Shown here piece after piece: positions 1 through 28,944 of a DNA stretch of 64,000 nucleotides. The position numbers and the translations under genes were made by a program. Position 1 is the stretch's first letter. Each line of letters opens with the position of its first letter. The notes under the pieces are model-generated. The model was not told the origin of the DNA. It ran no database searches and saw only the letters and a list, made by a program, of their open reading frames with translations. The stretch is from Lytechinus pictus (lineage: Eukaryota), in assembly GCF_037042905.1 (NCBI RefSeq), contig NC_087250.1, forward strand, positions 22,136,001 to 22,200,000. The letters are read 5' to 3'.

Positions 1-2530
1 GTGGGTTATTAATGATAATAATGAGACATCACAAAAAAAGAAAGACAGAAATAAATATATAATTGATTATATAAAAAGACTGACCTTATGGATGCCAAAA
101 AAAAACCATTAGCACTAATTTTACAAAGAAGTTTTAACGCAGCAGTTATTTTTTTTTTGAATATTTTTCTTATTAAAATTATCACTTGTTTCAAAGAAAC
201 ATTGCCCTATTAAATATATGTTTGTTAAGATTGATGAACCGACATTTTGTAACTAGAATATAATTTAGAAACTAAATAAACGCGTCGTATTTCAGTCAAA
301 CGTAAGAGATGAAGTCTGTTTTTAAAATTCTGACATAAATTCTGGCGGACCAGAATTAAAGTTTTACATGGTCCAATATTTTACTTATACACTCTATCCC
401 TGGATTGCCACGAAGATCCATGATTTATAGATAACATCATTCTTGGTTCAAATATTACACATTACCATTCAATTCATAGCTTTGAAGTGAAAACAAATTG
501 GAGAAAATAAAGAATATTCTTACACCGCTCGAGGAAACCTAAAAATGTTGCTTCATAAATTCAGATTACCCATGGTATTTCAACATCAGCAAACAAACTC
601 TCTTTATGAATTAATGATCAATAATTCCACCCTCTCTCCACCTCTTCCTTCGCGCGATCTCTCTCTCTCTTTCACTCTTAGATAAGTTAAAAATTATTAT
701 TTTATTATTATCATCGTTAATATCATTATTATCATCATTTGTTATCATTATTATTGTTACTATTATTATTTATTTATATTATTATTCATTATTATCATTG
801 CTTGTTACTATTCATCATTATTATTATTATTATTTACTATCATCATTATTATAGTTGCTGTTGCTAATATTATTATTATTATATTCATTATTATTATTAT
901 AACTGATATATTATTGTTTTTGTTATTCAATATCAATACATTCAGTGAAAAAATGTATGTATTTCAATTTGCTTGATTTGAAACTTTATTTAGTATACTA
1001 GACATGCCTAGTAACTTGTTGGTTATTTTTCATAATGAGACAACACAAAAAATAAAGACAGAAATAAGTATATAATCGATTATATAATCACCAACAGATC
1101 TAGATGCTAAAATACCTAATCACCAATTTCACAGAGTAGTTTTAAAGCATCGTTTTCTTCTTTTAATATCGTTTTTAATAGAAATATTACTTGTTTGAAA
1201 GAATATTGCCCGATTGAATATATATTTCAGTAAAGATCAATGGACCTAATTTTTTTTAACTAGAATATAATATAGAAATTAAATAAACGTATCGCATTTC
1301 GATGTAAACAGTTCAGCGGCTTTAGGTTGTATTATAAAAGCACTTTTGGCAGACCAGAAACAAAAGTTCACATGTTCCAATGTTGTACACTTATGTCCCC
1401 TCCGATCCCCTGGAATGATACGAGAATCCATGAGTTAAAGATAACATTAATCCTTGGTTCAAACACTACAAAATACCATTCAATTCATAGCTATGATGTG
1501 AACACCAACTGGAGAAAATAAGAAACATTGGTACTCCGTTCCAGGAAACCTGAAAATTGCTTCAGATCTCACCCACATTGTTTCAAAATCGCCTAAATAA
1601 ACTCTGTTTACGAATAATGATTCATATTTCCACCCTCTCCCCCTCTCTTATACAAGTTAAAGATCATTATTATTATTATTTTATTATCATTATTATTAGT
1701 AGGAGTAGTATTATAATTGTTATGATTTTCATTATTATTATTATTATTATTATCTATTACATTATTATTTTTATTTATTCATGTCATTATTCATTATTAC
1801 TATTACTTGATACTATTTATTATTATCGTCATTTATTATTATTAAAATAATTATTTGTTATTATTAGTATTATTATTGCTATTTTTATTGCTGCTGTTGT
1901 TGTTGCTGTTGTTATTTCATAGCAATGCATTGCAGTGAAGCTATGTATTGCAATTCGCTTGAGTTGAAGCAGTATGTAGTGTATGAGACATGCCTTGTTT
2001 CTGTGATTTATTTATCATAACAATGAGACAACACACAAAATAAAGACAGAAATATGTATATAATCGATTATGTAATTTTCGACACCCTTATAATAATAAT
2101 ATTGTACTTATATAGCGCATAATATTCGTGATCTCTATGCGCTTAACAAATGAATTATTTATTACATAAGAAATCAAGCGAATGGATATTAAAATACCTA
2201 AGCACTAATTTCAGAAAGTAGTTTTAAAGTATCATCTTCTTTTCTTTAAATATCTTTTTTAAACAGAAAAATCACTTGTTTTAAAGAAATATTGCCATAT
2301 TAAATAAATTATTGTAAAGATTGATGGACCGACATTTTGTAACTAAAATATAGTTTAGAAACTAATACATATATAATATTTCGGTTTCGACCAGGTGATT
2401 ATAAATTTTGACATAAATTTTGGCGGACCAGTTTAAAGGTTTACATTGTATAATGTTGTACTCTAACATTCTATCTATCCCTGGAATGCCACGAAGATCC
2501 ATGATTTAGATATAACATCATTCTTGATTC

Positions 2531-2812
2531 CACTAGCGTACCTACGGGGGGGGGGGGGGGGCAGGGGGGCAGTCTGCCCCCCCTGATGAGTCCCAACCCA
2601 TGCAAAGTACGTATCCCTGCCCCCCTGACGAGCTTGAAAGACCTTTTTTGCTCCACCTGACGAGCTTGAAGACCTTTTTTTTTCTGGTACGAAATCCTAT
2701 ATTTGTGATTGAAGACCTTTTTTTTTTTTTTTTTTTTTTTTTTTGCTTGTCAAATTTTTTGGCGGACGGTTTTGCCCCCCCCCCCCTGTGGAAAATCCTA
2801 GGTACGCCACTG
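2531..2812. mobile_element. hAT-type MITE inserted in array unit 3
   Basis: Imperfect TIRs CACTAGCGTACCTA / TAGGTACGCCACTG; exact 8-bp TSD CTTGATTC at 2523-2530 and 2813-2820. Confidence 0.85.
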
Positions 2813-3777
2813 CTTGATTCAAATATTACACATTACCATTCAATTAATAGCTTTGATGTGAAAACAAATTGGAAAAAATGAATATTCCTACACCGCTCGG
2901 GAAACATAAAAATTTTGCTTTATAAATTCAGATTACCCATGGTATTTCAACATCACCAAACAAACTCTCTTTACGAATTAATGATCAATAATTGCACCAT
3001 CTCCCCACCTCTTCCTTCGCGCTCTCTCTCTCTCTCTCTCTCTCACTCTTAGATTAGTAAAAATTATTATTATCATCATTAAGGTCATTATTATTATTAT
3101 TTCTTATCATTATTATTGTTACTATTAGTATTTATTCATATTATTATTTATTATTACTATTACTGATTACTATTCATTAATATTAGTATTTACTATTATC
3201 ATTATTGTAGTTTTTGTTGCTGTTATTATTATTATTATTATCTTCATTATTATGATTACAACTGATATTATTATTGCTTTTGTTATTTAATATCAATACA
3301 TTCAGTGAAAAAAAATATATGTATTTCAATTTGCTTGAGTTGAAACTTGATGTAGTGTACTAGACATGCCTAGTGACTTGTGGGTTATTCATCATAATGA
3401 GACAACACACAAAATAAAAACAGAAATAAGTATATAATCGATTATGTAATTTTAGAAATTCTTATGGATAATGAAATACCTATGCACTAATTTCACAAGG
3501 TATTTTTAAAGCATCGTCTTCTTTGTATATATATTTTTTTTTTTCATAGAAATGTTACTTGTTACATAGAAATATCACCCAAATTAATATATTTTAGTAA
3601 AAACCATTAGACCAACAAATTTTAACTAGAATATAATTTGGAAAATAAAAAGTAAACTTGCATTTCGATGAAGATTGATAATTCTTGTGTTAAAAAATTG
3701 AAATAAAATTTTGGCGGACCAGAAACAAATGTTTATTTACATGGTCCAACGTTGTACTTTGACATTTAAATCTACTA

Positions 3778-6659
3778 CGGAGCCCCTAAGTTGACATGTC
3801 ATTATATTACTTTCGTAAGTCGTTCCCTCGACTTATTAACTCGTTACCACGACTTATAACTCGTTCCCTCGACTTACTAACTCGTTCCCTCGACTTACTA
3901 ACTCGTTCCCACGACTTACTAACTCGTTCCCTCGACTTGAATGCGCAGCAGACCGGCAGGAAGTTGGTTGGATATTCAGGTTCGATATTCAAACGCCTGT
4001 GAAGCTGGACCAATATTCGATATTCGATATTCAAAAATTAGGGGTTTTGAAAGCTAACTAGGGGGTTTAACAGGTGCAGCAAGTCTCGGGCAACCATAAA
4101 AACACTGGCTTGCCCAAATACGAGGACATTTAGGGGACAAACGTCAGTGAATAAAAGGGCATGACATTTTTTTTTTCGAGGGGCCCCCAGGGATTTCCCG
4201 ACGGCCTAGCCGGGGTAATGACGTATCCTAACTTGTAGAACTTTACTTGGGCAATCAGATAAACACTAGCATGACCCGGCGCATGCACATTTAGGGGGCA
4301 ACTCGGTAAAGCATCTCATGAGCAGATCTTATTCATCTATTATACTCAGTCCTAATTCCTCCACCACTAAAATAGTTCCGAAAGAGTGATACATGTATTT
4401 TTCTTTTATTCGCACAAAATATGTTCAGTGGTTGCCCATTCTTTGTTTCTAGAATCAGTCTAATCATTATACATACTCTTTTTTGTAATCAGCTTACAAC
4501 AAAAAATGAGAATGGGTTGGGTCGAATGAATATTTTCAGCCGTCTGTTGTATAGATCGTAATTTCTTGGAAAAAAAAGATGGGGGCGTATAACGATAGAA
4601 AACGTATTGTCAAAACATAAAATATGAGTATAAAGCTCCTATAATCTTCGAATGATTCTCAGGAGACTTTTTTTTTTGCATGTGTAGCCTTCAATTCAAT
4701 TAATCAACAACGAGTTATACCCCTACAAAATAAACGTTTCATAAACTAAAATGTCTCTTTTAGACGATATCGCGTGACTAATTTCAAAGCTATTGATTGA
4801 TTGATTGATTGATCGGCTAAATTTCCAAAGCGACTATAACATAATAAGAATTTAATTTCAAAATCATTTTTAAAGGCCAAAATTTTCTGGCTCGCTTCGC
4901 TCGCTGGCGACTTTTACAAATTTTTCCACATTTGCTATGTTGTGCTGCCTCAACATATTTCGTTTATTATCCGCAACTGCGTTGAACTTAATATAATATG
5001 CGGTGTATTTACCCGCAATTTGAAAAAAAAATGGCCATCTGCAATGTTTAAAAATATCACGAGGTTCCGGGGGCTCCGCCCCAGACCAGTGGTGGCACCA
5101 AAGGAGGAGGCCCCAGTGAGTTTCCCCCCTAAAAATTTTGGGGAAAAAATGTAAAGTGATTTCTCGAAAACTGTTTTTTGTTCTTTAAATTTTGAAAATG
5201 TTCTCATCCATTCACCGTAAACATTTAGCTCCCAACAATTTTGGTCACTAACATAAATCTTTGAGGTCATTATATAATATTCAAAATGTCGCTCGTGCTA
5301 CGCGCTCGCAGTTACTAATAATGGAGATAAGTAAATTATTTGTTCACATTGGGCTTAAAATCCAATGTTATTAGAGTTTTCATTATTCGTTTTAGCGAGA
5401 TACATATCCTACATATTCATAATTTTCATAAATGAAATATTTTCAGCGAATTAGATAGCCATTCAGTTCATGATTACAAAAAGTGCTTAGAACGTCCAGG
5501 TATCATCCCCGGATTTCAAAACTTTTCGCAATATAAATACCCTATATTATTATTATTATAGCACTGATCCCCCCAAAAAAGTTATACAACCGAGAACAAA
5601 AAAGAAATGATAAAAGGAAAGAAAGATGAAAGATATGATGTCATTTTTTGCATACCATTTTTTTTTCTCGCTCGCTCGAGACTTATTATTAAGCAAATTT
5701 TTGCTGCATGTGCCATGGTGTGCCCCCTCTTTTTGTTCTTATCACGCATTGAGCTTCGCCCTAATGCTCGGGGCACAATCATAAAACATCCTGTTCATAC
5801 AATGATATGACCCCTCCGTTCTCCCTTCTCTTTCTCTCCCGTCCCCCTCCTTTTCTTTCCTATCTCTCCCTTTCGCTTCTCTCTCTTCTATTTTGTATTC
5901 TCTCTTTCCTTGTTTTTTTTTACTCTACCCACTGGCGGCACCAAGAGATAGGGGAAAAGTCAGGATTTTCCTTTAATTTTGTTAATTTGAGCCCCCTAAA
6001 TGTTCATGCGCCGGGTCAAGCTAGTGTTTATCTCGTTGCCCGAGTCGAGTTCTACAAGTTAGGATACGTGGTTACCCCGGCTAGGCCGTCGGGATATCCC
6101 TGGGGGCCCCTCGGAAAAAAAAAAAAAAAAAAATGTCATGCCCTTTTATTCACTGACGTTTGTCCCCTAAATGTCCTCGTACTTGGGCAAGCCAGTGTTT
6201 TTATGGTTGTCCGAGACTTGCTGCACCTGTTTAACCCCCTAGTTAGCTTTCAAAACCCCTAATTTCTGAATATCGAATATCGAATATTGGTCCAGCTTCA
6301 CAGGCGTTTGAATATCAAACCTAAATATCCAACCAACTTCCTGCCGGTCTGCTGCGCATTCAAGTTGAGGAAACGAGTTAGTAAGTCGTGGGAACGAGTA
6401 ACAAACTTACAAGTCGAGGGAACGAGTTAGTAAGTCGTGGGAACGAGTTAGTAGGTCGTGGGAACGAGTTACAAACTTACAAGTCGAGGGAACGAGTTAG
6501 TAAATCGTGGGAACGAGTTATAAGTCGAGGGAACGAGTTATCAGTCGAGGGAACGAGTTATAAGTCGTGGTAACGAGTTAGTAAGTCGTGGTTACGAGTT
6601 AGTAAGTCGAGGGAACGACTTACGAAAAAAAATAATGACATGTCACCTTAGGGGCTCCG
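3778..6659. mobile_element. Non-autonomous long-TIR DNA transposon, copy 1
   Basis: Ends TA|CGGAGCCCCTAAG ... CTTAGGGGCTCCG|TA; ~500-650 bp inverted arms with tandem ~19-nt subrepeats AACTCGTTCCCTCGACTTA; no transposase ORF. Confidence 0.85.
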
Positions 6660-6850: not shown

Positions 6851-9800
6851 TCTCCCCCCTCTCTTAAAAGTAAAAAATCAATATTGTTATCATATTACTA
6901 TTATTATAAACATTATCATTAATATTATTATTATCATCATTATTATTAATACATACTTATTATCATTATTATCATCATTAATATCATTTTTATTATTATT
7001 TCTTATCATTATTATTGTTACTATTATTATATCTTTATATTATTATTCATTATTACTATTGCTTATTACTATTTATTATCATTATTTACTATTATCATCA
7101 TTATAGTTGTTGTGGCTGTTATTATTATCTTCATCATTATTATTACAACTGATATTATTGTTTTTTTTATAGCAATATTGCCCGAAATTGTATTTCAGTA
7201 AAGATCAATACTCCAAAATTATTTAAGTAGAATATAATTCAGAAACTAAATAAACCTATTGTATTTCGGTGTGTGTTGCTGTTGCTATTTTGGGTTTTAT
7301 TTTGAAAAAAAAAAAATTTGCGGGCCAGAAACAAAGTTTTACATGGTCCAATGTTGGACTCTTATATCCCCTTTCCTGGATTGTCAGTAGGATCCATGTA
7401 CTAAAGATAATAAAAATGAGACAGTACACAAAATAAAGACAGAAATAAGTATATAATCGATTATATACTCATCGACAAACCTTATGGATGCTAAAATACC
7501 TAAGCATTAATTTTACAAAGTAGTTTTAACGCATCATCTTTTTTTCTTTAAACATTTTTTTTAACGAAAATTTTATTTGCTTCAAAGAAATATAGCCATA
7601 TTAAATAGATTATTGTAAAAATTGATGGACCGACATTTTGTAACTAGGATATAACTTAGAAACTAAATAAGCGTATTGTATTTGGGTTTCAGCAAGTAAA
7701 TGACTTTTAAAGTCTGTAAACATAAAGTTTGGCGGACCAGAATTAAAGTTTTACATGATCCAATATTGTATTCTTATATCCTATCCCCTGGATTGCTACG
7801 AAGATCCATGATTTACCGATGACATCATCCTTGGTTCAACTGTTACACATTACCATTCAATTCATAGCTTTGATGTGAAAATAAATTGGAGAAAATAAAG
7901 AATATTCCTACACCGTTCGGGGAACCCTAAAAATGTTGCTTCATAAATTCAGATTACCCATGGTATTTCAACATCAGCAAACAAACTCTCTTTACGAATT
8001 AATGATCAATAATTGCACCCTCTCTCTCCCCCTCTTCCTTCGCGTGCTCTCTCTCTCTCTCTCACTCACACTTAGATTAGTTAAAAATTATTATTATCAT
8101 CAATATCATTATTATTATAATTTCTTATCATTATTATTGTTACTATTATTATCTATTCATATCATTTTTCATTATTACTATTACTGATTACTATTCATTA
8201 TTATTATTAATATTTACTATTATCATTATTGTAGTTGTTGCTGTTATTATTATTATTTTCATTACTATTATTACAACTGATATTAGTATTGTTTTGTTAC
8301 TTTATAGCAATACATTAAGTGAAAAAATATATGTATTTCAATTTGCTGGAGTAAAACTTTACGTAGTGTACTAGACATGCCTAGTGACCTGGGTTTTTTT
8401 ATCGTAATGAGACAGGTAAAAAAAATAAAGACAGAAATAAGTATATAATTTTAATTGATTGATTGGCCGATATGGCCTTTTATATGATAAAACAATATTT
8501 ACAAATATTATACAGAGGCAAAGGGATAAAAAAGCAAAATACAATTTTAGAGATAACAATTACAACAAATGAAAGCACAACATACATGTACCGGATGCAG
8601 GGGACCAGCGAAGGCCGAAGGCCTATCAAGGCTAGTCCCCGAACATAGCAATAAATAAAGTATAAACCAATACAAAAAAAGGGCAAAAAACAATCGATTA
8701 TATAAAAACCAACAGAACATATGGCAGCTGAATACCTAAACACCAATTTCACAAAGTGATTTCAAACAATCGTCTTCTTTGATTTTAATATCTTTTTTGA
8801 AACTTCTTTTTCAATAAAAATTTTACTTGTTCTAAAGAAATATCACCCGAATAAATACATTTCAGCAAAGATCAATTGACCCAAAAAAATTTAACTAGAA
8901 TATAATTTATAAACAAAATAAATATAATGTATTTCGGTACCAACAGAATTGAATTAGAAAACATTTATTAAACAATTTTGGCGGACCAGAAGTAATGTTT
9001 TACAAGGTCCAATATCTTACTCTTACATCTTATCCCCTGGATTACCTCGAAGATCTATGATGATGTAAAGATAACATCATTCTTGATTCAAATATTACAC
9101 ATTTAGCATTCAATTCATAGCTTTGATGTTAAAAGAAACTGGAGAAAATAGAGAATATTCCTACACCGTTCGGGGAAACCTAAATATTGCTTCATAAATT
9201 CAGGTTGTTCATGGTATTTCAACATCACCAAACAAACTCTCTTTACGAATTAATGATCAATAATTGCACCCTCTCTCCACCTCTTCCTTCGCGCGCGCTC
9301 TCTCTCCCCCCCCCCCCTCTCTCTCTCTGTCTCTCACTCTTAGGTTAGTTTAAAATTATTATCATCATTAATATCGTTATTATTATTCCTTATCATCATT
9401 ATTGTTTCTATTATTTATTTATTTATATTATTATTCATTATTTCTATTACTATTCATTATTATTAGTATTTATTATCATCATTGTAGTTTTTGTTGCTGT
9501 AAATATTATCATTATCTTCATAATCATTATTACAACTGATATTAGTATTGTTTTTGTTATTTCATAGCAATAAATTCAGTGAAAAAATATATATGCAGTT
9601 CAATTTGCTTGAGTTGAAACTTGATGTAGTGTACTAGACATGCCTAGTGACTTGTAGGTTATTTAACATGATGAGACAAGACACAAACTAAAGACAGAAA
9701 TAAGTATATAATCGATTAAGTATACACTAACAAACATTATGGATGCTAAAATACCTAAGCGCAAACTTCACAAAGTAATTTTAAAGCATCGTCTTCCTTT

Positions 9801-10462
9801 ACTTTAATATCTTTGAAATAAAATTAAATAAAATGTTATATGTTTCAAAGAAATATCGACCGAATAAACATATATTTTAGTAAAAATCAATACACCAAAA
9901 TATCTTAACTAGAATAGATTTTAAAAAGTAAATTAACTAATTGTATTTCGGTTTCTCATCGCTACTTTTGAATTTACTTTTTTTGTTGAAACAATTTTGG
10001 CGGACCAGAAATAATGTTTCATAAGGTCCAATTTTATATTCTTGAATTCTATCCCCTGGCTGGATTACCATGAAGATCCACTATTTAGAGATAACATCAA
10101 TTTTGTTCAAATACTACATATTAACAACCATAGCTTTGATGTGAAAACAAATTGTAGATAATAAAGAATATCCCTACACCGCTCGGGAAAACCTAAAAAT
10201 GTTGCTTCAGAAATTCAGATTACCAATGGTATTCCAACATCACCAAACCCTCTTTACGAATTAATGACCAATAATTGCAACGGGGAGCTCCCCCTCTTCC
10301 TTCGCATGCGCGCTCTCTCTCTCTCTCACTCTTAGATTAGTTCAAAACTGTTATTATCATTATTAATATCATTATTATTATTATTATTTATTTTCATTAT
10401 TATTGTTACTATTATTTATTTATCTATATTATTATTCATTATCACTATTACTTAATACTATA

Positions 10463-10629: not shown

Positions 10630-12073
10630 TATTCATTATTATTTACTATTATCATTATTACAGATCTTGCTGTTATTATTATCTTCATTACCATTATTAC
10701 AACTGATATTAGCATGGTTATTGCTATTTTGTAGCAATACATTCAGTGAGAAAATATATGTAATTCAATTTGCTTAAGTTGAAACGTCATGTAGTGTACT
10801 AGACATGCCTAGTGACTTGTAAGTTATTTACTATAATGAGACAACACAAAAAATAAAAACAGAAATAAGTATATAATCGATTATGTATACAATAACAAAC
10901 ATTATGGATGCTAAAACACCTAAGCACAAATTCCACAAAGTAATTTTAAAGCATCGTCTTCCTTTACCTTAATATCTTTTTAAAAAATTAATAAAAATGT
11001 CGTATGTTTTAAAGAAATATCGACCGAATAAACATTTATTTTAGAAAAATCAATTCACCAAAATATTTAACTAGAATAAATTTTAGAAATTAAATAAACT
11101 GATTGAATGTCGCGTTATCACTATGATACATTTTTACCTTTTTTAAAAACAATTTTAGCGGACCAGAAATAATGTTTCACATGGTCCAACATTATATTCT
11201 TACATCCTACCCCTGGATAGCCATGAAGATCCACTATGAAGAGATAACATCATTCTTGCTTCAAATACTACATATAACCATGCCTAGTGAATCATGAGAT
11301 ATTTATCATAAGGAGACCAAAAAAATAATAAAGACAGAAATTATATAATCGATCATATAAAACCTAACAGACCAAGAGGACACTAAAATACCTAAGCACC
11401 AATTTTACAAAGTAATTTTAAAGCATCGTCTTCCATTTTAAAATATTTTTTAAATATTTTTTAATAGCAATTATACTTGTTATGTTTTCAGAAATGTCAC
11501 CCAAATAAATATATTTTAGTAAAAATCTTTAGACCAAATTTTTTTAACTAGAATATATCTTAGAAAGTAAAATTATTATTGTATTTTTGTATTTAACGTT
11601 GTTATCAATTTATAATATATATCTTATTACAATTTTGGCGGATCAGAAACAATGTTTCACTTGGTCCATTACTTCACTCCTACAGCTTATCCCCTTGATT
11701 GCCACGAAGATCCAAGTTCTAGAGATAACATCATTCTTGGTTCAAATATTACACATTGCCATTTAACTCATTGCTCTGATGTAAAAGCAAATTGGAGAAA
11801 ATAAAGAGTATTCCGTCACCTTTCGGGGAAACTCAAAAATTGCTTCAGAAGTTCAGATAATCCATGGTATTTCAACAACACCAAACAAACTCTCTTTACG
11901 AATTAATGATCAATAATTCTCTTCCTTCGCGCTGTCTCTCTCACGCTTAGATTAGTTGAAATTATTACCAATATTATCATCATTAATATCATTATTATTT
12001 CTTATCATTATTATTGTTAGTATTATCATTTATTTATGATATTTATTATAACAATTACTTATTATTACAACTA

Positions 12074-12248
12074 GGCGTTGTGGCGTGCGCCTGTAATCCA
12101 AGCTATGTGGGGAAGTTACGAAGTGATGCAGAGGTTCGAGCCCTGGTCACGTCTTCCGTATGGTGACATTAAAGGTCGGTCCCAGACGTAAATAATCATA
12201 TCTGATTGATACACGTCTGACAAAACACATAATACACACACACACACA
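12074..12248 (+). mobile_element. SINE with 7SL-like head, copy 2
   Basis: Same sequence with B box GGTTCGAGCCC; same position in the unit as copy 1, so probably co-duplicated with the unit. Confidence 0.85.
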
Positions 12249-12924
12249 AACTATTCATTTTATTGTTTACTATTATCATTACTATAGATGTTACTGTTAT
12301 AATTATTATCTTCATTACTATTATTATAACTTGTATTAGTATTGTATTTATTATTTTCTAGCAATACATTCAGTGAGAAAATATATGTATTCCAATTTGC
12401 TTGAGTTGAAACTTCGTGTAGTGTACTAGACATGCCTAGTGACTTGTGGGTTATTTATCATAATGAGGACAACAACAAAATAAAGACAGAAATAAATATA
12501 TAATCGATTATATAAACAGCAACGGACGCTATGGATGCTAAATACCTAGGCACCAATTTCACAAAGTAATTTTAGAGCATCGTCTTCTTCTATTTTAATA
12601 TTTGTTTTAAATATTTTTTTTTCGATTGGAAAGGTTACTTGTTTCAAAGAAGAACTGCCCGAATAAATATATCTTAGTAAAGATCAATAGACAAAAAATT
12701 ATAACTAGAATATAATTTAAAAGCTTAAAAGTATAGTATTTTGGTACACTTATTGCTTAATTTATGCTCTAACTTATTTATAAACACAATTTTGGCGGAC
12801 CAGAGATGTTATACATGGTCCAATATTTATATTCTTACATCTCATCCCCTAGCTTTTAACTAGAATATAAATTTGAAATAAAATAAACCTATCGTATTTC
12901 GGTACATAGGCGCCTACATTAGTT

Positions 12925-13095
12925 GCTGGGCGTTGTGGCGTGCGCCTGTAATCCAAGCTATGTGGGGAAGTTACAAATTGATGCAGAGGTTCGAGCCCTG
13001 GTCACGTCTTTCGGATGGTGACGTTAAAGGTCGGTCCCAGACGTAAATAATCATTTCTGATTGATACACGTCTGACAAAAAACTCAAATACACAC
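12925..13095 (+). mobile_element. SINE with 7SL-like head, copy 3 (full 5' end), inside the variable window of unit 12
   Basis: GCTGGGCGTTGTGGCGTGCGCCTGTAATCC...GGTTCGAGCCC...TACACAC lies between GTATTTC and AGTTTTGGCGGACCAG. Confidence 0.85.
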
Positions 13096-14486
13096 GCTTT
13101 TACTTTCAAAACAGTTTTGGCGGACCAGAATTACTGTTTTACATGGTCCATTGTTTTACTCTTAATTCTATCCCCTGGATTGCCATGAACAACCATGATT
13201 TAGAAACATCATCCTTACTTCATATATTACATATTACCGTTCAATTCATTGCTTTGATGTGAAAACAAATTGTAGAAAATAAAGAATATTCCTACACCTA
13301 TCGGGGAAACCAAAATTTTGCTTCATAAATTCAGGTTGTTCATGGTATTTCAACATCACCAAACAAACTCTCTTTACGAATTAATGATCAATAATTGCAC
13401 ACTCTCTCCACCTCTTCATTCGCGCGCGCTCTCTCTCTCTCTCTCTCTCCCCCCTCTCTCTCTGTCTCTCACTCTTAGGTTAGTTTAAAATTATTATTAT
13501 CATCATTAATATCGTTATTATTATTTCTTATCATCATTATTGTTTCTATTATTTATTTATTTATATTATTTATTTATTTATACTATTTATTTATTTATAT
13601 TATTATTCATTATTACTATTACTATTCATTATTATTAGTATTTATTATTATCATTGTTGTAGTTTTTGTTGCTGTAAATATTATTATCTTCTTAATCATT
13701 ATTACAACTGATGTCATTATTGTTGTTGTTATTTCATAGCAATATATTCAGTGAAAAAATATATATGTATTTCAATTTGCTTGAGTTGAAACGTTATATA
13801 GTGTACTAGACATGCCTAGTGACTTGTAGGTTATTTACCATAATGAGACAACACAAAATAAAGACAGAAATAAGTATATAATCGATTATGTATACACTAA
13901 CAAACATTATGGATGCTAAAATACCTAAGCACAAATATCACAAAGTAACTTTAAAGCATTGTTTTCCTTTACCTTAATATCTTTAAAAAGATTGAATGAA
14001 AATGTCGTATGTTTCAAAGAAATATTGACCGAATGAACAGTTATTTAAGTAAAGAACAATACACCAAAATCTTTTAACTAGAATAGATTTTAGAAACTAA
14101 ATAAACTCATTGTATTTCGTTTTTATATCGCTATGATACTTTTTCACTTTTTTAAAAACAATTTTGGCGGGCCAGAAATAATATTTCACATGGTCCAATA
14201 TTATATTCTTACATTCTATCCCCTGGATAGCCATGCAAATCCACTATTTAGAGATAACATCAATTTTGCTACAAATACCACATATTAGCATTTAGTTCAT
14301 ACAGTTGTGCTCAGAAGTATTCATACCCCTTGGAAAATCAGTTTTTTGCATTAAAAAAAAAATAAGAGTAGAAATGGAGTCAGTTACAAATCAGTCAAAT
14401 ACATTTAGGTATCATGTACAAAAGCATGCCATTTTTATTTTCACCTCATTTGCATATCGAAAAGCTCCATCTTCATTTCATCAGAC

Positions 14487-17818: not shown

Positions 17819-20349
17819 GATGAAGTTTAAGCCGATTCCGATGAATTGACAAATATCTTGCCACTGATTCTCAATTTATAGAACCACTAAAGTTTCTGGA
17901 ATTCAAAGACTTTGATTTTCTCAACAAAATTTCATTTCAAAAAGGCAAAACGCCCCCCTCCCCCAATCTTTAATTGAATTGATTTTTAATCAATTTCATC
18001 AACATGGCAACTAACATCTGGACAAACCTCAGAAAATTGAAGATTTCTGAGATCTAAGGAACTTCCTCTTTCTGGATACCATGCAACATGGCTTAAATTC
18101 TTTTGTATTCATGTCTGGCATTATAGGGTCCAGCTTGAAACCATATGGGGGTAGTAAAATATTTGAACTATGAAATATATGGTGTCTTATAATTGAGAAA
18201 GACAGGGGTATGAATACTTTTGAACATTAGAAAATTCAGAAAAGTCATCTTCTCTATTATTATGCAAATGAGATGAAAATAAAATCAGCATGCTTTTGTA
18301 GATAATGTCTATTAGTATATAACTACTATGCAAGTTATCCAAGTTCTGCTTTCATTTTTATGAAAAGTGCAAAAAACACATATTTTCCTAGGGGTATGAA
18401 TACTTCTGACCACAACTGTAGCTTTGATGTGAAAACAAGTTGAAGAAAATAAAGAATATCCCTACACCGTTCGGGGAAACCTAAAAATGTTGCTTCAGAA
18501 ATTCAGATTACTAATGGTATTTCAACATCACCAAACAAACTCTATTTACGAATTAATTATCAATAATTGCACCCTCTCTCCCCCCTCTTCCTTCGCGCGC
18601 GCGCTCTCTCTCTCTCTCACTCTTAGATTAGTTAAAAAGTATTATTATTATCAATAATATCAATATTATTATCATTTCTTATCATTACTATTGTTACTTA
18701 TTTTTATTTATTTATATTATTTTTTATTATAACTATTACTGATTGCTATTCATAATTATAAGTTTTTACTATTATCATTATTGTAGTTTTAGTGGCTATT
18801 ATTATTATTATAATTATCTTCATTATTATTTTTACAACTGATTTTATTATTGTTTTTGTTATTGTATAGCAATACATTCAGTGAGGAAATATATGTATTT
18901 CATTATGCTTGAGTTTATAAAGAAAGAAATGAGTATATAATCGATCATAAAATCACCAATAGACCTTATGGATGCTAAAATACCTAAGCACCAATTTCAC
19001 TAAGTAGTTTTAAAGCATCGTCTTTTCTATTTAAATGTCTCTTTTTTACTATAATTTTTAATGGAACTTTTACTTGTTCCAAAGAAATACGGTCCGAATA
19101 AATATATTTTAGTAAAGATAAATACACCAAAAAAAAATAACTAGAATAGAATTTAGAAATTGAATAAACCAATTGTATTTCAGAACGTAGCGTTGGCTAT
19201 ATATTAGTGTTTGTTCTTGAAAAGAAAAATTGACGGACCAAGAATGTTTTACATGATCCAATATTTTACTCTTAAATTCTATCCTCTGGATTGCCACAAA
19301 GATTGATTATTTAGTGATAACATCATTCTTGATTCAAATACTACATATTACCATTCAATTTATTGCTTTCATGTGAAAACAAATTGGAGAAAATAAAGAA
19401 TATCCCTACACCGTTCGGGGAAACCTGAAAATGTTGCTCCATAAATTCAGATTACCCATGGTATTTCAACATCACCAAACGAACTTTCTTTACGAATTAA
19501 TGATCAATAATTGCACCCTCTCTCCCCCTCTTCCTTCGCGCGATCCCTCTCTCTCTCACTCTTAGATTAATTAAAAATTATTATTGTCATCATTTATATC
19601 ATTATTATTATTTCTTATCATTATTATTGTTACTATTAGTATTTATTCATATTATTATTTATTATTACTATTACTGATTACTATTCATTAATATTAGTAT
19701 TTACTATTATCATTATTGTAGTTTTTGTTGCTTTTATTACTATTATTATTATCTTCATTATTATGATTACAACTGATATTATCATTGCTTTTGTTATTTT
19801 ATAGCAATACATTCAGTGAAAAAAAAATATATGTATTTCAATTTGCTTGAGTTGAAACTTTATGTAGTGTACTAGACATGCCTAGTCACTTGTGGGTTAT
19901 TCATCATAATGAGACAACACACAAAATAAAGACAGAAATAAGTATATAATCGATTATGTAATTTTCAAAACTCTTATGGATAATAAAATACCTATGCACT
20001 AATTTCACCAAGTATTTTTAAAGCATCGTCTTTTTTCTATATATATTTTTTTTTTTAATAGAAATGTTACTTGTTCCATAGAAATATCACCCCAATTAAT
20101 ATATTTTAGTAAAAACCATTAGACCAACAAATTTTAACTAGAATATAATTTGAAAAAAAAATAATCATATAGTATTTCGATGGTAATAATGTTAGTTTTC
20201 TATATTTAAATTAGACTTATAATTTTGGCGGACCAGAAAGATTTACTTCCATGGTCCAATGTTGTACTCTTACATTCTATCATTGTGCGGAGCCCGTATG
20301 GTGACATGTCATTATTTCAAATTACAAGTCGTTCCCTCGACTTACTTGC

Positions 20350-21880
20350 CACATTTCGCAATAACGATTGGTGTATTTTTAGACTTATCTAAAGCATTCG
20401 ATTGTATAGACCATAATATTTTAATTGATAAGCTATCATCATACGGGTTTAGAGGGACAGTATTGAAGTGGTTAATCAGTTACTTAAGAAATCGAAAACA
20501 ATGTGTATGCATCAACAAAATTCATTCAGACTTTCAGGACATTAGAGTAGGGGTACCCCAGGGGTCTAACCTAGGCCCTCTTCTTTTTATATTGTACATC
20601 AATGACCTGCAACATGTAAGTAATATTTTAACTACTACCTTATTTGCAGACGATACAAGTTTATTTTTATCTGGTAAGGATCCCATTCAATTAAATAATA
20701 TTTTAAATTCTGAAATGGAAAAAGTTCACATGTGGTTCCAAGCCAACAGACTACAAATTAACACTAAGAAGACATCTTTTATGATTTTTAAGCCTAAAAA
20801 TAAGAAAATTGAAGAAAACTCAATAAAATTATATATAAATGATTTTGAAATTCAGAAAGTGCAATATACGAAATTCCTAGGTGTCACAATTGACGATAGC
20901 ATGAGTTGGAAACAACATGTAAATAATATTTCTATGAAGATTTCTCAAACCATTGGTGTACTTAATAGAATCAAAGGTGACTTACCATTGCATATTCGTG
21001 TTCAATTATACAATACAATGATACTCACGCATCTCAGCTATTGCAATATCGTATGGGGGGACTGTGCAAATTATTTAAAGCTACAATTATTTCGCTTACA
21101 AAAACGGGCAATAAGAATAATAACAAATTCCCCATATTTAGCTCACTCTCATCAATTATTCCGTAAATTAAAGATTCTAAAAATTTATGATATACATACC
21201 CTTCACACTGCAATTTTTATGTTTTCATACTACAAGAATCAGTTGCCTGACACATTTAACAGTTATTTTAAAACAAATCGCAGTGTAAACAAATATAATA
21301 CGAGAAATTCTGATAATTTATACATTCCTTTTTACCGCTTTTCTTTCTCAAGAACCGTCATAAGTTATAGTGGACCACTCATATGGAACAGTTTGCCCCC
21401 TGAAATAAAAGAAAGTCCTTCGCTAAATTCATTTAAAGTAAGATTTAAGTCTTACCTTCTAAATATGTATACTTCACCATGTTCTCAGTGAATAAGCTTG
21501 CTTGCTTTTATGTGTATGTTTTTTAAACATATTTTTTTGTAATGTAGTTGTTATTTTTTTTCTTCAAAATTTTCATTAGTTTGTTGATTTCGTTTATTTT
21601 GAAATGTGTGTTTCTTGCAATCTAATCAATTGATTGCAGGATGGTCTTTTTTCGGGAATGAATGTTAATCAGGGAGTAGCCTAGATAGGTCTATTTGGCT
21701 TTTGCTATCCCCCCACATCGCATTCATTACCCTATGTATTTTGTTATTTTTGTTAATTTGTCATTTTACTATATTCATTACTCCTTTACTCCTTTACTAT
21801 GGAATCATTTTGATTGATCTCGATATATTGTATCTTGTATGTTTTTTACAGATGTGAAATAAATGAATTTGAATTTGAAT
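20350..21880 (+). mobile_element. 5'-truncated CR1/L2-group LINE (open RT C-terminal half, 3' UTR, tail)
   Basis: IGVFLDLSKAFDCIDH, GVPQGSNLGPLLF, FADDT, KFLGV; open to the stop at 21491; AATAAA plus (TGAATT)n tail at ~21858-21880. Confidence 0.93.
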
Positions 21881-22795: not shown

Positions 22796-25700
22796 CGGCC
22801 TCTCGAGCTCTGGGAGGAACCAAATGTGGATTTAGAAAGTCGTCCTAAATCGGATATATCGCTGTTACCATAGTAGCAACCAGAATTTTGCACACGAAAC
22901 GCAAATTGAATGTTTCCGTTCAAGATGCGAAACGAAAAAAAAATCTCATGTCACACAATTTGCATTGCAGGACAGAGTTTTAAGACCATGACGACGGGCC
23001 CAAAAGTCTCTTCCAAATTCAACTAACGTCGTAAATAAGCGTTCGCGTTCTTCCAACGAAAGGTCTGGACTAACTCGTTACCACGACTTATAGCTCGTTC
23101 CCTCGACTTACTAACTCGTTCCCACGACTTACTAACTCGTTCCCTTGACTTGAATGCGCAGCAGCCCGGCAGGAAGTTGGTTGGATATTCAGGTTCGATA
23201 TTCAAACGCCTGTGAAGCTGGACCAATATTCGATATTCGATATTAAAAAAATAGGGGTTTTGAAAGCTAACTAGGGGGTTTAACAGGTGCAGCAAGTATC
23301 GGGCAACCATAAAAACACTGGCTTGCCCAAATACGAGGACATTTAGGGGACAAACGTCAGTGAATAAAAGGGCATGACATTTTTATTTTGTGATTTTTTT
23401 TCGAGGGGTCCCCAGGGATATCCCGACGGCCTAGCCGGGGTAATAACGTATCCTAACTTGTAGAACTTTACTTGGGCAATCAGATAAACACTCGCATGAC
23501 CCGGCGCATGCACATTTAGGGGGCAACTCGGTAAAGCATATCATGAGCAGATCTTATTCATCTATTATACTCAGTCCTAATTCCTCCACCACTAAAATAG
23601 TTCCGAAAGAGTGATACATGTATTTTTCTTTCATTCGCACAAAATATGTTCAGTGGTTGCCCATTCTTTGTTTCTAGAATCAGTCTAATCATTATACATA
23701 CTCTTTTTTGTAATCAGCTTACAAAAGAAAATTAGAATGGGTTGGGTTGAATGAATATCTTCAGCCGTCTGTTGTATAGATCGTAATTTCTTGGAAAAAA
23801 GATGGGGGCGTATAACGATAGAAAACGTATTGTCAAAACATACAATTTGAGTATAAAGCTCCTATAATCTTCGAATGATTCTTAGGAGACATTTTCTTTT
23901 GCATGTGTAGCCTTCAATTCAATTAATCAACAAGGAGTTATACCCCTACAAAATAAACGTTTCATGAACTAAAATGTCTCTTTTAGACGATATCGCGTGA
24001 CTAATTTCAAAGCTATTGATTGATTGATTGATTGATCGGCTAAATTTCCAAAGCGACTATAACATAATAAGAATTTAATTTCAAAATCATTTTTAAAGGC
24101 CAAAATTTTCTGGCTCGCTTCGCTCGCTGGCGACTTTTACAAATTTTTCCACATTTGCTATGTTGTGCTGCCTCAACATATTTCGTTTATTATCCGCAAC
24201 TGCGTTGAACTTAATATAATATGTGGTGTATTCACCCGCAATTTGATTTTAAAAAATGGCCATCTGCAATGTTTAAAAACATCACGTGGTTCCGGGGGCT
24301 CCGCCCCAGACCAGTGGCGGCACCAAAGGAGGAGGCCCCAGTGAGTTCCCCCCCCTGAAATTTTGGGGAAAAAAAATGTAAAGTAATTTCTCGAAAAATA
24401 TTTTTTGTTCTTTAAATTTTGAAAATTTCCTCATCCATTCACCGTTAGCATTAAGCTCCCAACAATTTTGGTCACTAACAAATCTTTGAGGTCATTATAT
24501 AATATTCAAAATGTCGCTCGCGCTACGTGCTCGCAGTTACTAATAATGGAGATAAGTAAATTATTTGTTCACATGGGGCTTAATAATCCAATGTTATTAG
24601 AGTTTTCATTATTCGTTTTAGCGAGATACATATCCTGCGTATTCATAATTTTCATTAATGAAATATTTTCAGCGAATTAGATAGCAATTCAGTTCATGAT
24701 TACAAAAAGTGCTTAGAACGTCCAGGTATCATCCCCGGATATCAAAACTTTTCGGCTCGCGCTTCGCGCTCGCATTATTCATTTGGTGAGATATCATCTT
24801 CATGGACCAATTAATGCAAACAGCTAGTCCTTGACAGGTCCCTTTTCAAGTCAGTATAGGGACTATACATTTGAAATAAAATTAGCTCGCGCTTCTCACT
24901 CTGTTTTAAAAAAATTGTGTGTCACCCCCCCCCCCCCGGCCCCAAAATGTTATTTTGCCTCCTCATAGGTTAAAAACTATGGTGCCGTCTTTGCCACGGA
25001 CCCGATCCGCATAGCACTGATCCCCCCAAAAAAATTATACAACCGAGAACAAATTAAAAAGAAATGATAAAAGGAAAGAAAGATGAAAGATATGATGTCA
25101 TTTTTTGCATACCATTTTTTTTCTCGCTCGCTCGAGACTTATTATTAAGCAAATTTTTGCTGCATGCGCCATGGTGTGCCCCTCTTTTTGTTCTTATCAC
25201 GCATTGAGCTTCGCCCTAATGCTCGGGGCACAATCATAAAACATCCTGTTCATACAATGATATGACCCCTCCGTACTCCCTTCTCTTTCTCTCCCGTTCC
25301 CACTCCTTTTCTTTCCTATCTCTCCATTTCGCTTCTCTCTCTTCTATTTTGTATTCTCTCTTTCCTTTTTTTGTTTTACTATACCCACTGGCGGCACCAA
25401 GGGATGGGGGAAAAGTCAGGACCGTGGTTCCCCATGCTTGAAATAGCCCTTTATTCCTTTAATTTTGTTAATTTGAGCCCCCTAAATGTTCATGCGCCGG
25501 GTCAAGCTAGTGTTTATCTGGTTGCCCGAGTCGAGTTCTACAAGTTAGGATACGTGGTTACCCCGGCTAGGCCGTCGGGATATCCCTGGGGGCCCCTCGA
25601 AAAAAAATCAAAAAGTAAAAATGTCATGTCCTTTTATTCACTGACGTTTGTCCCCTAAATGTCCTCGTACTTGGGCAAGCCAGTGTTTTTATGGTTGTCC

Positions 25701-27160
25701 GAGACTTGCAGCTGCACCTGTTTATCCCCCTAGTTAGCTTTCAAAACCCCTAATTTTTTAATATCGAATATCGAATGTTGGTCCAGCTTCACAGGCGTTT
25801 GAATATCGAACCTGAATATCCAACCAACTTCCTGCTGGTCTGCTGCGCATTCAAGTCGAGGGAACGAGTTAGTAAGTCGTGGGAACGAGTTACAAACTTA
25901 CAAGTCGAGGGAACGAGTTAGTAAATCGTGGGAACGAGTTATAAGTCGTGGGAACGAGTTAGTAAGTCGAGGGAACGAGTTAATAAGTCGAGGGAACGAG
26001 TTAATAAGTCGAGGGAACGAGTTAATAAGTCGAGGGAACGAGTTATAAGTCGAGGGAACGAGTTATAAGTCGTGGTAATGAGTTAGTAAGTCGAGGGAAC
26101 GACTTACGAAAACAAAAATGACATGTCACCTTAAAGGCTCTGTACTTTGATGTGAAAATGAGGAACATTGGTACTCCGTTCCAGGAAATGTGAAAATTGC
26201 TTTAGATCACCCACATTGTTTCAACATCGCTTAAACAAACTCTGTTACGAATAATGATCCATATTTGCCCCCCCCCCTCTCTCTCTCTCTCTCACTCTCT
26301 CTTCCTCTCCCCCTGTCTTAAAAGTAAAAAATCAATATTGTTATCATATTACTATTATTATAAACATTATTATAATATTATTATTATTATTATCATTATT
26401 ATTAATATCATACTTATTATCATTATTATCATCATTAATATCATTCTTATTATTATTTCTTATCATTATTCGTGTTACTATTATTATAAATTTATATTAT
26501 TATTCATTATTACTATTACTTATTACTATTCATTATCATTAGTATTTACTATTATCATTATTATAGTTGTTGTTGCTGTTATTATTATTATCTTCATTAT
26601 TATGATTATAACTGATATTATTATTGTTTTTGTTATTTTATAGCAATATATCCAGTGAAAAAAATATATGTATTTCAATTTGCTTGAGTTGAAACTTTAT
26701 GTAGTGTACAATGCATGCCTAGTGACCTGGGGTTATTTACCACAATGAGACAGGTAACAAAATAAAGACAGAAGTACATAATCGATTATGTAATTTTCGA
26801 CCCTCTTATGGATAATGATATACCGAGGCACTAATTTCACAAAGTAGTTTTGAAGCATCGTTTCCTTTTACTTAATATATTTTATCATGAAAATATGACT
26901 TGTTTCAAAGAAATATTGCCCGATTAAATATATTTTAGTAAAGATCAATAGACAAAAATTTTTAACTAGAATATAATTTAGAAACTAAATAAAACTATCG
27001 CATTTCGATAAACAAAGAGTTGCGGAATTTGGTTATATGTTGAAAATAATTTTGGCGGACCAGAAATAAAGTTGTACATGGTCTAATATTGTACACTTAC
27101 ATTCTAACCCCTAAATTGGCACGAAGATCCATGGTTTAGAGATAACATCATTCTTGATTC

Positions 27161-27572
27161 CAGCAGGACCGTTTTTTCTTCTTTACGTTCTACTTGTAAA
27201 TGCTCCATCAATTATATGTACATGTATATTTTTCTGTAACCCTGCCAGTAGGCCTACTCGTAATTACATGTAGCATCACTTCTAATAACCGCTTCCTTAC
27301 ACACACTCAACTTATCATTTCTCGTGTTTTGCAATCATTATTGTTCATTGAAATTATTACGGTTAATCGAAATTAGTATTGCAACTTAGAATCATTATTA
27401 TTGTAAACTTGAATTATCACTGGATATTTGAATTATTATGGTTAAATTGATATAAGATTATTATTGTAATTGAGATTGATTCATGTCTATGTGCAATTTA
27501 TATGTTTTTATTTGTAAACTCAACGGCAATTCAGCCTTCGTGGCTGCTACATTGAATAAATACATCTTGAAT
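27161..27572 (+). mobile_element. LINE 3'-end fragment in array unit 16
   Basis: CAGCCTTCGTGGCTG stem-loop, AATAAA and ATCTTGA-type tail; flanked by CTTGATTC at 27153-27160 and 27573-27580. Confidence 0.65.
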
Positions 27573-27779
27573 CTTGATTCAAATATTATATTTACCGTTC
27601 AATTCATAGCTTTGATGTGAAAACAAATTTGAGAAAATAAAGAATATTGGTACTCCGTTCCAGGAAACCTGAAAATTGCTTCAGATCTCACCCACATCGT
27701 TTCAACATCGCCTAAATAAACTCTGTTTACGAATAATGATCCATATTTTCACCCTCTTTCTCTCTTATACAAGTTAAAG

Positions 27780-27839
<60 letters not shown>

Positions 27840-27861
27840 GTTATTATTATTATTATTATTT

Positions 27862-27906
<45 letters not shown>

Positions 27907-28254
27907 ATTATTAGGTAAGGTAAATAGGGTATTCTCTGGTATCGATATAGCCTAGCATGGCAGGGTTACCTTGAGCATTTAACAAGTTGCTTTGTTCAAA
28001 AACATCTACATTGATATTCTTATTACTATTATTATTATTATAACTGTTGTTATTATTATTAGATTTTTATTACTATTATTATTATTAATATTATTATATT
28101 GTTGTTGTTGCTATTTCATAGCAATGCATTGCAGCGAACAAATATGTATTGCAATTCGCTTGAGTTGAAAGTACTAGACATGCCAGAATGGAAAAGTTTT
28201 ACATGGTCCAATGTTGGACTCTTATATCCCCTTTCCTGGATTGTCAGAATGATC

Positions 28255-28420
28255 GTGTATTTGAGTTTTGTCAGACGTGTATCAATCAGATATGATTATT
28301 TACGTCTGGGACCGACCTTTAACGTCACCATCCGAAAGACGTGACCAGGGCTCGAACCTCTGCATCAATTTGTAACTTCCCCGCATAGCTTGGATTACAG
28401 GCGCACGCCACAACGCCCAG
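28255..28420 (-). mobile_element. SINE with 7SL-like head, copy 4
   Basis: Reverse complement of 12926-13095. Confidence 0.85.
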
Positions 28421-28944
28421 TTCCATGAACTAAAGATGATAATAATGAGACAGTACACAAAATAAATAAAGTTAGTAAGTCGAGGGAACAAGTTATAAGT
28501 CGAGGGAACGAATTATAAGTCGTGGTAACGAGTTAGTAAGTCGAGGGAACGACTTACAAAAAAATAAAGACAGAAATAACTATATAATCGATCATCGACA
28601 AACCTTATGAATGCTTAAATATCTAAGCACTAATTTTACAAAGTAGTTGTAACGCATCATCTTCTTTTCTTTAAATATTATTTTAAACAAAAATATCACT
28701 TGTTTCAAAGAAATGTAGCCCTATCAAATGTATTATTGTAAAGATTGATGGACCGACATTTTGTAACTAGAATATAATTTAGAAACTAATATTTATATTG
28801 TATATCGGTTTCTAGGGCGGCGATATTTTTTTAATATTTTGACGTAAATTTTGGCGGACCAGTTTCAAAGGTTTACATGGTCCAATGATGTTGTACTCTT
28901 ACATCCCCTCCGATCCCCTGGAATGACACGAGGACCTATGAGCT

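Follow-up and report, generated by a model that had tools for sequence, protein, structure and literature searches.

A 64-kb window of the Lytechinus pictus genome (NCBI RefSeq assembly GCF_037042905.1, contig NC_087250.1, positions 22,136,001 to 22,200,000 of the forward strand; C6:22136001-22200000 in the genome coordinates used here) carries an array of ~1-kb repeats. By the window we mean this whole stretch of 64,000 nt, and positions are given within it. As expected of a sea urchin, the 812-Mb assembly encodes the sperm protein family Bindin (PF02084, E 1.5e-67). The array lies on the forward strand between positions 176 and 30440, as delimited by genome BLAST and anchor searches, is interrupted by transposons and comprises 17 recognisable units and one degenerate unit. 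Our favoured explanation, to which we assign a probability of about 0.6, is that the array is an orphan, lineage-specific family of Sm-class small nuclear RNA (snRNA)-type genes, shaped like U7 and carrying rapidly evolving 5' arms. The anatomy of the units, the match of their upstream motif to the proximal sequence element (PSE) of the host snRNA genes, the pattern of conservation and the size of the family are direct observations, established from the DNA.

Each unit is recognised by an upstream motif, AACTAGAA, which occurs 16 times in the window, 15 times on the forward strand between positions 251 and 30323 and once on the reverse strand at 50707. Shuffled windows gave 3.28 +/- 1.81 matches, with a largest value of 8. 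When one mismatch was allowed, the motif was not enriched (90 matches vs 92.65 expected); one-letter variants of it are found in three further units, at 2341, 7225 and 7642. Below, units are named by the first A of the motif, p, and p+n denotes a position n nt downstream of it. Genome BLAST with one unit core returned 18 matches, all of them within C6:22136176-22164904 (window 176-28904). From the start of the motif to the end of the downstream hairpin, the core measures 118-125 nt in 16 of 17 units; the remaining one carries a short interspersed element (SINE). In the alignment of units, the whole ~1-kb repeat is 60-90% conserved and the gene core is not singled out. The upstream promoter region, exemplified by that of unit 16 (26764-26963, forward strand), contains conserved blocks at about -200 (91% column identity) and at -140 to -101 (83-85%), a GAAAYATTGCMC box about 55 nt upstream of the motif, which is also present in distant relatives, and a TATA-like sequence ~33 nt upstream of the motif.

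To place the motif, we located U1, U2, U5 and U6 loci in the same genome and read their flanks. The pattern AAC[TC][GA][TGA] stands at -57 to -59 in 7 of 11 U1/U2 loci (background 0.0024 per nt); of the remaining four, three have CACTGT or AACTGC at the same place, as judged by eye, and one has AACGAG. It is found at -57 to -59 in all three U5 loci, counted from printed sequences, and at -64/-65 in 5 of 7 U6 loci, where a TATA box follows at about -30, ~33-35 nt past the PSE. One U6 and one U1 locus have the exact sequence TAACTAG. Judged by this comparison, AACTAGAA is the PSE core of this genome and presumably a SNAPc site, and the SNAPc-type character that an earlier, sequence-only reading had assigned to the motif is borne out by the genome's own U1, U2, U5 and U6 genes. 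Two further features of the host genes served as references. The first transcribed A is directly preceded by (C)GGT, as CGGT|A in 4 of 4 U2 loci and as GGT|A in 2 of 3 U5 loci, and a 3' box, AAAGAAAGA (at most one mismatch), lies 12-19 nt past 11 of 14 U1/U2/U5 loci.

About 85 nt past the motif, the units carry an Sm site (AATTTTGG), followed by a hairpin that runs from GGACCAG to CATGGTCC and has a GGACCA/TGGTCC stem. This conserved module, directly 3' of the variable stretch, had been overlooked by the sequence-only reading. An Sm anchor, TTTGGCGGACCAG, gave 17 matches with up to two mismatches, vs 0.67 expected, and 15 of these 17 lie in units. The site reads exactly AATTTTGG in 10 of 17 units, differs from it by one letter in five and is degenerate in two. 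It conforms to the Sm consensus PuAU(4-6)GPu, as does the site found in distant relatives. Directly 3' of it, 85.2% of the stem cells are paired across 26 family sequences, as compared to at most 56% when the partners are slid, and the minimum-energy fold includes the hairpin in 10 of 16 units. A search of the window for transfer RNAs (tRNAs) found none.

Between the motif and this module, conservation collapses. The arm, 30-42 nt long, has a pairwise identity of 0.53, vs 0.50 +/- 0.05 for shuffled arms. Identity is 0.72 for the 60 nt and 0.68 for the 190 nt of upstream flank (shuffled, 0.52-0.53) and 0.76 for the Sm site plus hairpin. Within -440 to +200, the column profile drops to 0.43-0.47 solely at p+40 to p+79. 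Minimum-energy folds revealed no common structure in the 5' arms. Pairing of the arms with U1, U2, U5 and U6 stayed at chance level, the lowest z being -2.6 over 80 duplex tests.

The same elements reappear outside the array. A two-anchor pattern (motif, 64-88 nt, Sm anchor) matched the genome 16 times, vs 0-1 for a control pattern. Ten of these matches are in the window and six are on C6 (20.89-20.90 and 25.74 Mb) and C9. A genome search with the Sm anchor added a few more relatives, giving ~10 diverged members and ~27 loci overall. What the distant members have in common with the array is limited to the GAAAYATTGCMC box and the motif, the Sm site with its stem, a GATGTGAAA.CAAATTGGAGA block farther downstream, and the spacing between motif and Sm site. 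This spacing is 84-90 nt in all eight distant relatives with a recognisable motif, although the intervening sequence is unrelated. In these eight, RGT is found at p+49 to p+56 in six, GGT|A at p+58 and p+59 in two, and TATAW at p+26/27 in five. This arrangement indicates that the distant members share the geometry of U2 and U5 genes. A block, GATGTGAAA.CAAATTGGAGAA, is conserved between units of the window and distant relatives, although its distance from the hairpin differs, at about +135 in the units (for example at 27220-27260) and about +45 in three relatives (loci L012, L018 and L011); it might signal the 3' end, belong to a longer RNA or serve as a binding site.

Two placements of the transcription start can be read from this geometry. 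Because of the PSE and TATA-like spacing of U1, U2 and U5 genes and of the distant members, we slightly favour a start 53-59 nt past the first A of the motif. A start at the CGGT junction, p+43 to p+46, is a tentative second choice, suggested because the edge of conservation is sharp there and the CGGT resembles that of U2 and U5. Units of the window have RGT at 42-43 nt in 8 of 17 cases (at 40 in 12703), with a second RGT at 52-54 in 4 of 17.

The junction had been given a different meaning by the sequence-only reading, which took a fixed 42-nt spacing from the motif to a YRNT start as the grammar of minigenes like those of nematode 21U Piwi-interacting RNAs (piRNAs). A YRNT junction (CAGT, CGAT, CGGT or CGTT) does follow exactly 42 nt after the first A in 10 of 18 units, and when shifts of 1-3 nt are allowed, units 2341, 28765, 12703 and arguably 11546 join them, for 13-14 of 18. 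It is absent from 7642 (GGGT), 19139 (CAGA), 11069 (CGCG) and 30323 (TGCC). The T positions proposed as mature 5' U were correctly placed on the sequence. The spacing itself did not stand out. We counted the units that keep the modal length in 42-nt windows along a 16-unit alignment; the motif-junction window (p-2 to p+40) does so in 12 of 16 units, vs 11-14 of 16 for other conserved blocks. A control window at -142 to -100 keeps it in 14 of 16 and the variable stretch in only 3 of 16. Since other blocks of the repeat are equally constant in length, the fixed spacing reflects shared ancestry and not a spacing rule. Fixed spacing is expected anyway among paralogous units that are ~70-90% identical, and alone it is no evidence for such a rule.

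The arms had also been described as becoming T-rich after 20-28 nt. What we find is a second half of the arm that is 82% A+T (T 0.45, A 0.37), vs 66% for the first half, so that the enrichment holds for A and T together. Runs of four or more T occur inside 9 of 16 arms, 14-30 nt past the junction, and the other seven lack such a run upstream of the Sm site. The proposed 21U-like product fits the units poorly, as each of them runs on into an Sm site and stem-loop that were kept while the arm was randomised. The number of loci also differs, with ~17 + 10 members here vs the thousands of C. elegans. Since a start ~56-59 nt past the motif is more likely than one at the YRNT, a mature 5' U at p+45 is unsupported. 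Altogether, these comparisons suggest that a 21U-piRNA-like system is unlikely.

Units 3624 and 20136 belong to one segmental duplication, which includes a transposon inserted past the unit, and so offer a view of how the variable stretch changes. The 720 nt upstream are mostly 0.90-1.00 identical between the two, with 3 of 25 windows at 0.73-0.83, and the shared transposon is mostly 0.93-1.00 identical, with one window at 0.77. Between them, a zone from p+17 to about p+225 is 0.60-0.83 identical and reaches into the first tens of bases of the transposon. Divergence over these ~210 nt has been 5-8 times faster than around them, and both copies keep the same Sm site and lower stem. Gene conversion was considered as the source of the zone and rejected, as no donor was found among 24 members (best local scores 17-21 of ~66); a 65-nt query from unit 1258 matched only itself genome-wide in a search that is insensitive to short matches. 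Since the zone is bound to a position and crosses into the transposon, it points to a local mutational process rather than to selection on the arm alone. The arm and its surroundings most likely owe their fast evolution to transcription-associated mutagenesis of sequence that is free of constraint, while purifying selection preserves the Sm site and stem; alternatively, a base-pairing arm may be under diversifying selection. Transcription-associated mutagenesis is described for tRNA genes in the available text of one study, in which the gene and its immediate flanks mutate far faster than their surroundings and functional positions stay fixed (PMC6130373). The likeness to that case, as far as this text goes, would lie in a short, heavily transcribed gene that evolves fast together with its flanks around fixed functional positions (PMC6130373). 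The difference is that tRNA genes are transcribed by RNA polymerase III, whereas here a single duplicate pair of a presumed RNA polymerase II snRNA-type gene is concerned.

From this anatomy we infer transcription, the polymerase, the start and 3' end, Sm binding and a function. In the mechanism that we propose, a unit would consist of distal blocks, the PSE core AACTAGAA, an A/T-rich TATA-like sequence and a short transcribed region. The latter would begin with an unstructured, A/U-rich 5' arm that is specific to the unit and continue into the Sm site AAUUUUGG and the stem-loop GGACCA..UGGUCC. The Sm site and the directly adjoining stem-loop would provide the minimal signal for assembly of an Sm core. 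RNA polymerase II would transcribe the units in a SNAPc-dependent manner, and an Sm core would be assembled at the Sm site next to the stem-loop. The product would be a small nuclear ribonucleoprotein (RNP) with an RNA of ~70-95 nt, if the hairpin is terminal, and a free 5' arm, arranged as in U7 except that the Sm site is an ordinary one.

U7 genes are clustered in sea urchins, frogs and zebrafish, and the array resembles them, according to the available text of the source, in the free 5' arm, the Sm-type site, the hairpin and PSE-type promoters (PMC5054213). According to the same text, U7 is set apart by its deviant Sm site, RUUUNUCYNG, and by a UCUUU box within its histone-binding 5' arm (PMC5054213). 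In contrast, the site of the array is the canonical AAUUUUGG and reads AAUUUUGGCGG instead of RUUUNUCYNG. TCTTT was seen, by eye, in 0 of 16 array arms, and these arms vary between copies whereas the U7 arm is fixed. The Rfam U7 model had no match in window positions 1-32000 at E up to 10, and a genome search with it gave 0 matches, with 65 of ~190,000 first-look candidates scored. Another family of this build is viral. The HSURs of Herpesvirus saimiri are seven Sm-class RNAs with snRNA-type promoters and a conserved Sm site and 3' stem-loop; their A/U-rich 5' arms differ from one another and pair with host microRNAs or mRNAs. The array shares with them the conserved Sm site and 3' stem-loop and the differing A/U-rich 5' arms. 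However, the HSURs are viral and seven in number, as opposed to a chromosomal echinoderm tandem array, and no sequence relation is known. Literature searches with unit strings, and for sea urchin Sm-class or novel snRNAs, found no description of the family. When metagenomes were scanned with the 16-mer AATTTTGGCGGACCAG, at least 119 stretches matched, and 0 of 80 loci examined had the features of the family.

Several observations weigh against our explanation. There is no significant covariation in the hairpin, as its sequence hardly varies; the observed level of pairing was attained by 292 of 500 shuffles. RNAalifold gave zero consensus pairs on a wide 127-column alignment, after which the stem pairing reported above was scored by hand. 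In the 64-kb window, Rfam had 0 matches at gathering thresholds, and at E up to 10 the sole in-unit match in positions 1-32000 was a piece of a 7SL-like SINE in unit 12858. The geometry of the array units also departs from that of known genes, as their CGGT junction is 46 nt from the motif vs 58-59 nt in those genes, and their TATA-like elements are at p+8 and p+22 vs p+28 in the tandem U2 gene. Five of the 18 units (2341, 7225, 19139, 30323 and 12858) are damaged. The accelerated zone is seen in the single pair 3624/20136, and nothing of the kind is seen in a second close pair, 11069/14076, with identities of 0.82 in the arm and 0.81-0.90 in the flanks. Finally, AAAGAAAGA was not found within 120 nt of the hairpin in any of 15 units. 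A version with one mismatch lies at +127 to +131 in 4 of the 15. Given no near 3' box and this more distant variant, the primary transcript, and perhaps the mature RNA, may reach well beyond the hairpin. Such a far-reaching 3' end would agree with the extent of the fast-evolving zone.

The most serious rival holds that the array decays or evolves neutrally as a repeat: it would descend from one snRNA-type gene by tandem amplification, would now be largely non-functional, and would owe its conserved blocks to recent amplification and gene conversion instead of selection on an RNA. The obvious lesions in 5 of 18 units would suit this explanation, as would a conservation of 60-90% that extends over the whole ~1-kb unit beyond the gene core, and a hairpin that comes without covariation, an Rfam family or a canonical 3' box nearby. 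However, in the distant relatives elsewhere on C6 and on C9, conservation is confined to the motif, the Sm site with its stem, and the motif-Sm spacing, the sequence in between having turned over. In 3624/20136, moreover, the Sm site and lower stem form an identical island in a zone at about 50% identity, which neutral decay would not have left intact. We leave this rival a small but real chance. Genes for spliced-leader (SL) RNAs are a different matter. In nematodes, tunicates, hydrozoans and others, these genes form tandem ~1-kb units with a SNAPc-type promoter and a AAUUUUGG Sm site by stem-loops, and yield an RNA of ~100 nt, so that the tandem ~1-kb repeats, PSE-type promoter, Sm site and stem-loop of the array all have a counterpart there. 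The arm might then hold a 5' splice site, and the junction is indeed a GT at fixed spacing in 9 of 18 units, with GTAAGA, GTAAAT and GTGATT within some arms. Alternatively, the 44 nt from AACTAGAA to the GT would be the leader exon and the variable stretch an intron, in which case the GAAAYATTGCMC box at -55 and the TATA-like sequence at -33 of the motif would serve as the upstream promoter. Yet that box differs from the PSE core of the genome and no donor is consistent: four CGAT units have no junction GT, and 8893 and 12703 have no other GT. Unlike SL RNA genes, the array shows neither a conserved donor site nor leader-bearing retrocopies; a conserved 30-mer (up to 3 mismatches) has 9 genome matches, 9 of 9 in the array, with no dispersed retrocopies. 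To our knowledge, SL trans-splicing has not been reported for echinoderms, and a literature search found nothing to the contrary. We consider an SL RNA origin improbable.

Two further rivals concern short transcripts that would end before the hairpin. As type-3 minigenes of RNA polymerase III, the units would combine the PSE with a TATA element, and transcription would terminate within the arm, at its T runs, or at the TTTT that is part of the Sm site, so that RNAs of 15-45 nt would result and the hairpin would lie outside them. TATAAT directly past the motif would fit this scheme, as would the runs of four or more T in 9 of 16 arms and the T4 within the Sm site of most units. The TATA-like sequence, however, lies 8 or 22 nt past the motif in the units and 26-27 nt past it in the relatives, vs ~33-35 in U6 and 28 in tandem U2. 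In addition, a T run ahead of the Sm site is missing from 7 of 16 arms, and conservation of the Sm site and stem would be left unexplained. We give this scheme as little weight as the SL one. The last rival is the nematode-like piRNA minigene mentioned above, in which transcription would start at the R of YRNT, yield a capped precursor of ~26-30 nt and end in a 5'-U RNA loaded into Piwi. In nematodes, as described in the available text of one study, the 21U motif was co-opted from a SNAPc site, precursors are ~28 nt long and start 2 bases upstream of the mature U, and the loci are very many (PMC6436959); thousands of piRNA transcription units are reported for C. elegans. The array would match this picture in an upstream motif of SNAPc kind, since the Ruby motif of nematodes descends from one, in a YR start and in A/T-rich downstream sequence that recalls the low-melting pausing signal of nematodes, as far as that text describes them (PMC6436959). 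A YRNT-like junction is present in 13-14 of 18 units. On the other side, no Sm site or hairpin is described for nematode loci in the available text, whereas the ~27 loci here have the Sm module with its conserved site and stem-loop downstream. The spacing is no more fixed than that of other blocks, and the relatives have no 42-nt junction but RGT at p+49 to p+56. A piRNA-like origin seems to us very improbable, and is the least likely of the rivals considered.

The individual units, all on the forward strand, differ in how well the core is preserved. Sm site AATTTTGG is accompanied by a CGGT junction in unit 7 (8893-9010), unit 8 (9907-10029) and unit 17 (28765-28883), in the latter at 41 nt, by CGTT in unit 13 (14076-14196), by TTGT at 41 nt in unit 10 (11546-11667) and by CGAT in unit 16 (26964-27084), where a G-U pair stands at the stem end. 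Unit 1 (251-374) has a CAGT junction at 293-296 and the Sm variant AATTCTGG at 338-345. Unit 2 (1258-1378) has CGAT, Sm site ACTTTTGG and a mismatched stem (AGACCA/TGTTCC), which is possibly decaying. Unit 6 (AACTAGGA; 7642-7761), absent from the list of the sequence-only reading, has GGGT and AAGTTTGG, and unit 9 (11069-11187) has CGCG, AATTTTAG and an arm 82% identical to that of unit 13. In unit 3 (AACTAAAA; 2341-2461), with CGGT at 41 nt, the 3' arm of the hairpin is broken, and the Sm site of unit 5 (AAGTAGAA; 7225-7349) is degenerate, with the A-run AAAATTTG. Unit 14 (19139-19259), with CAGA at the junction, has lost its Sm site and is likely a pseudogene. The degenerate 18th unit (30323-30440) retains the motif, and its Sm site and hairpin are eroded. 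Unit 4 (3624-3747) is the segmental duplicate of unit 15 (20136-20257) and has the same transposon downstream; over p+17 to p+225 the two are 60-83% identical, with flanks at 90-100%. Unit 11 (12703-12821), with TGGT at 39 nt, ends ~35 nt past its hairpin at the motif of unit 12 (12858-13149), which is without upstream promoter blocks and has its arm split by a 7SL-like SINE at ~12908-13100. Positions 12703-13149 contain a 155-bp internal tandem duplication that runs from the motif to ~35 nt past the hairpin and joins at a CTAG microhomology, which explains why unit 12858 has a motif and no upstream promoter blocks.

The SINE belongs to a 7SL-like short element found at 12068-12120 (+), 12925-13011 (+) and 28335-28421 (-), the 5' part of which resembles the metazoan 7SL Alu domain. 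With Rfam it gives sub-threshold matches (E 0.00041 and 0.0017), and it also matches the Alu-derived mir-1268 model. We considered whether the promoter of unit 12858 might drive a 7SL RNA gene and rejected this, as the sequence is a piece of the SINE, of which further copies lie at 12068 and 28335. We know of 7SL-derived SINEs from primates, rodents and tree shrews, and one in a sea urchin may deserve attention. The spacer of unit 2341 is interrupted at ~2530-2815 by an insertion resembling a miniature inverted-repeat transposable element (MITE), which has terminal inverted repeats and contains long homopolymers of G and of C. The transposon downstream of units 3624 and 20136 is bounded by inverted arrays of a 21-nt tandem repeat, TAACTCGTTCCCTCGACTTAC (3816-3938, 6372-6622, 25853-26106 and 23071-24754), and sits ~46 nt past the hairpin of both units; its copies are 91-96% identical, which indicates that unit and transposon were duplicated together as a segment. 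The copy at 20136 has an extra insertion of ~2.7 kb with a reverse-transcriptase frame (20223-21491). That this frame marks an Sm-site-specific insertion was rejected, since it merely extends upstream and the unit is intact to ~20290. A long near-perfect inverted repeat at 30584-30746, with a below-threshold match to plant MIR859 (E 0.00013, 40.7 bits, gathering score 130), is probably a MITE hairpin. A retrotransposon without long terminal repeats occupies 48630-53469 on the reverse strand; its frames correspond to an endonuclease, a reverse transcriptase (Pfam RVT_1, E 1.4e-35) and an RNase H (Pfam RNase_H, E 1.1e-10).

Elsewhere in the genome, the host snRNA genes form tandem arrays of U2 (1037-bp units), U1 (1405-bp) and U5 (~1362-bp, some head-to-head), at loci L031-L042, L055-L066 and L206-L208. 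Besides these there are dispersed snRNA copies, whose upstream sequences differ and which keep the PSE core, the bases before +1 and AAAGAAAGA. The U6-type loci L044-L047 (C2, C6 and C16) and L048-L050 (C7 and C21) include, alongside canonical U6, variants with a different 5' stem-loop and a full PSE and TATA box. They also include three loci at which the initial 68 nt of U6, together with the promoter and a CACGTG box upstream, continue into unrelated sequence. With these loci, the PSE core, initiator and 3' box of the snRNA genes of this sea urchin are now described.

If the units encode Sm-class RNAs as we favour, a more speculative thought, which we regard as doubtful, is that the array encodes "programmable" guide RNPs, in which free arms of 25-40 nt have been diversified, each for a different RNA target. 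A bolder variant of it would have the same promoters also release short capped RNAs, like nematode piRNA loci. U7-SmOPT antisense vectors make artificial use of a U7-shaped RNA with an ordinary Sm core; if the guide reading were true, cells would have invented the design of these vectors.

The pair 3624/20136 provides a clean natural example of a hypermutable zone of ~200 nt at a presumed RNA polymerase II snRNA-type gene, in which constrained islands mark the parts that are probably functional. Other RNAs known to combine a variable free arm with a canonical Sm site and stem-loop, as the units do, are U7, the viral HSURs and antisense snRNAs made by engineering. If the RNAs are made and bound by Sm proteins, they would constitute an unnamed Sm-class family in a classic model phylum, and the use of diversified Sm-class guide RNAs by animals would become directly testable.

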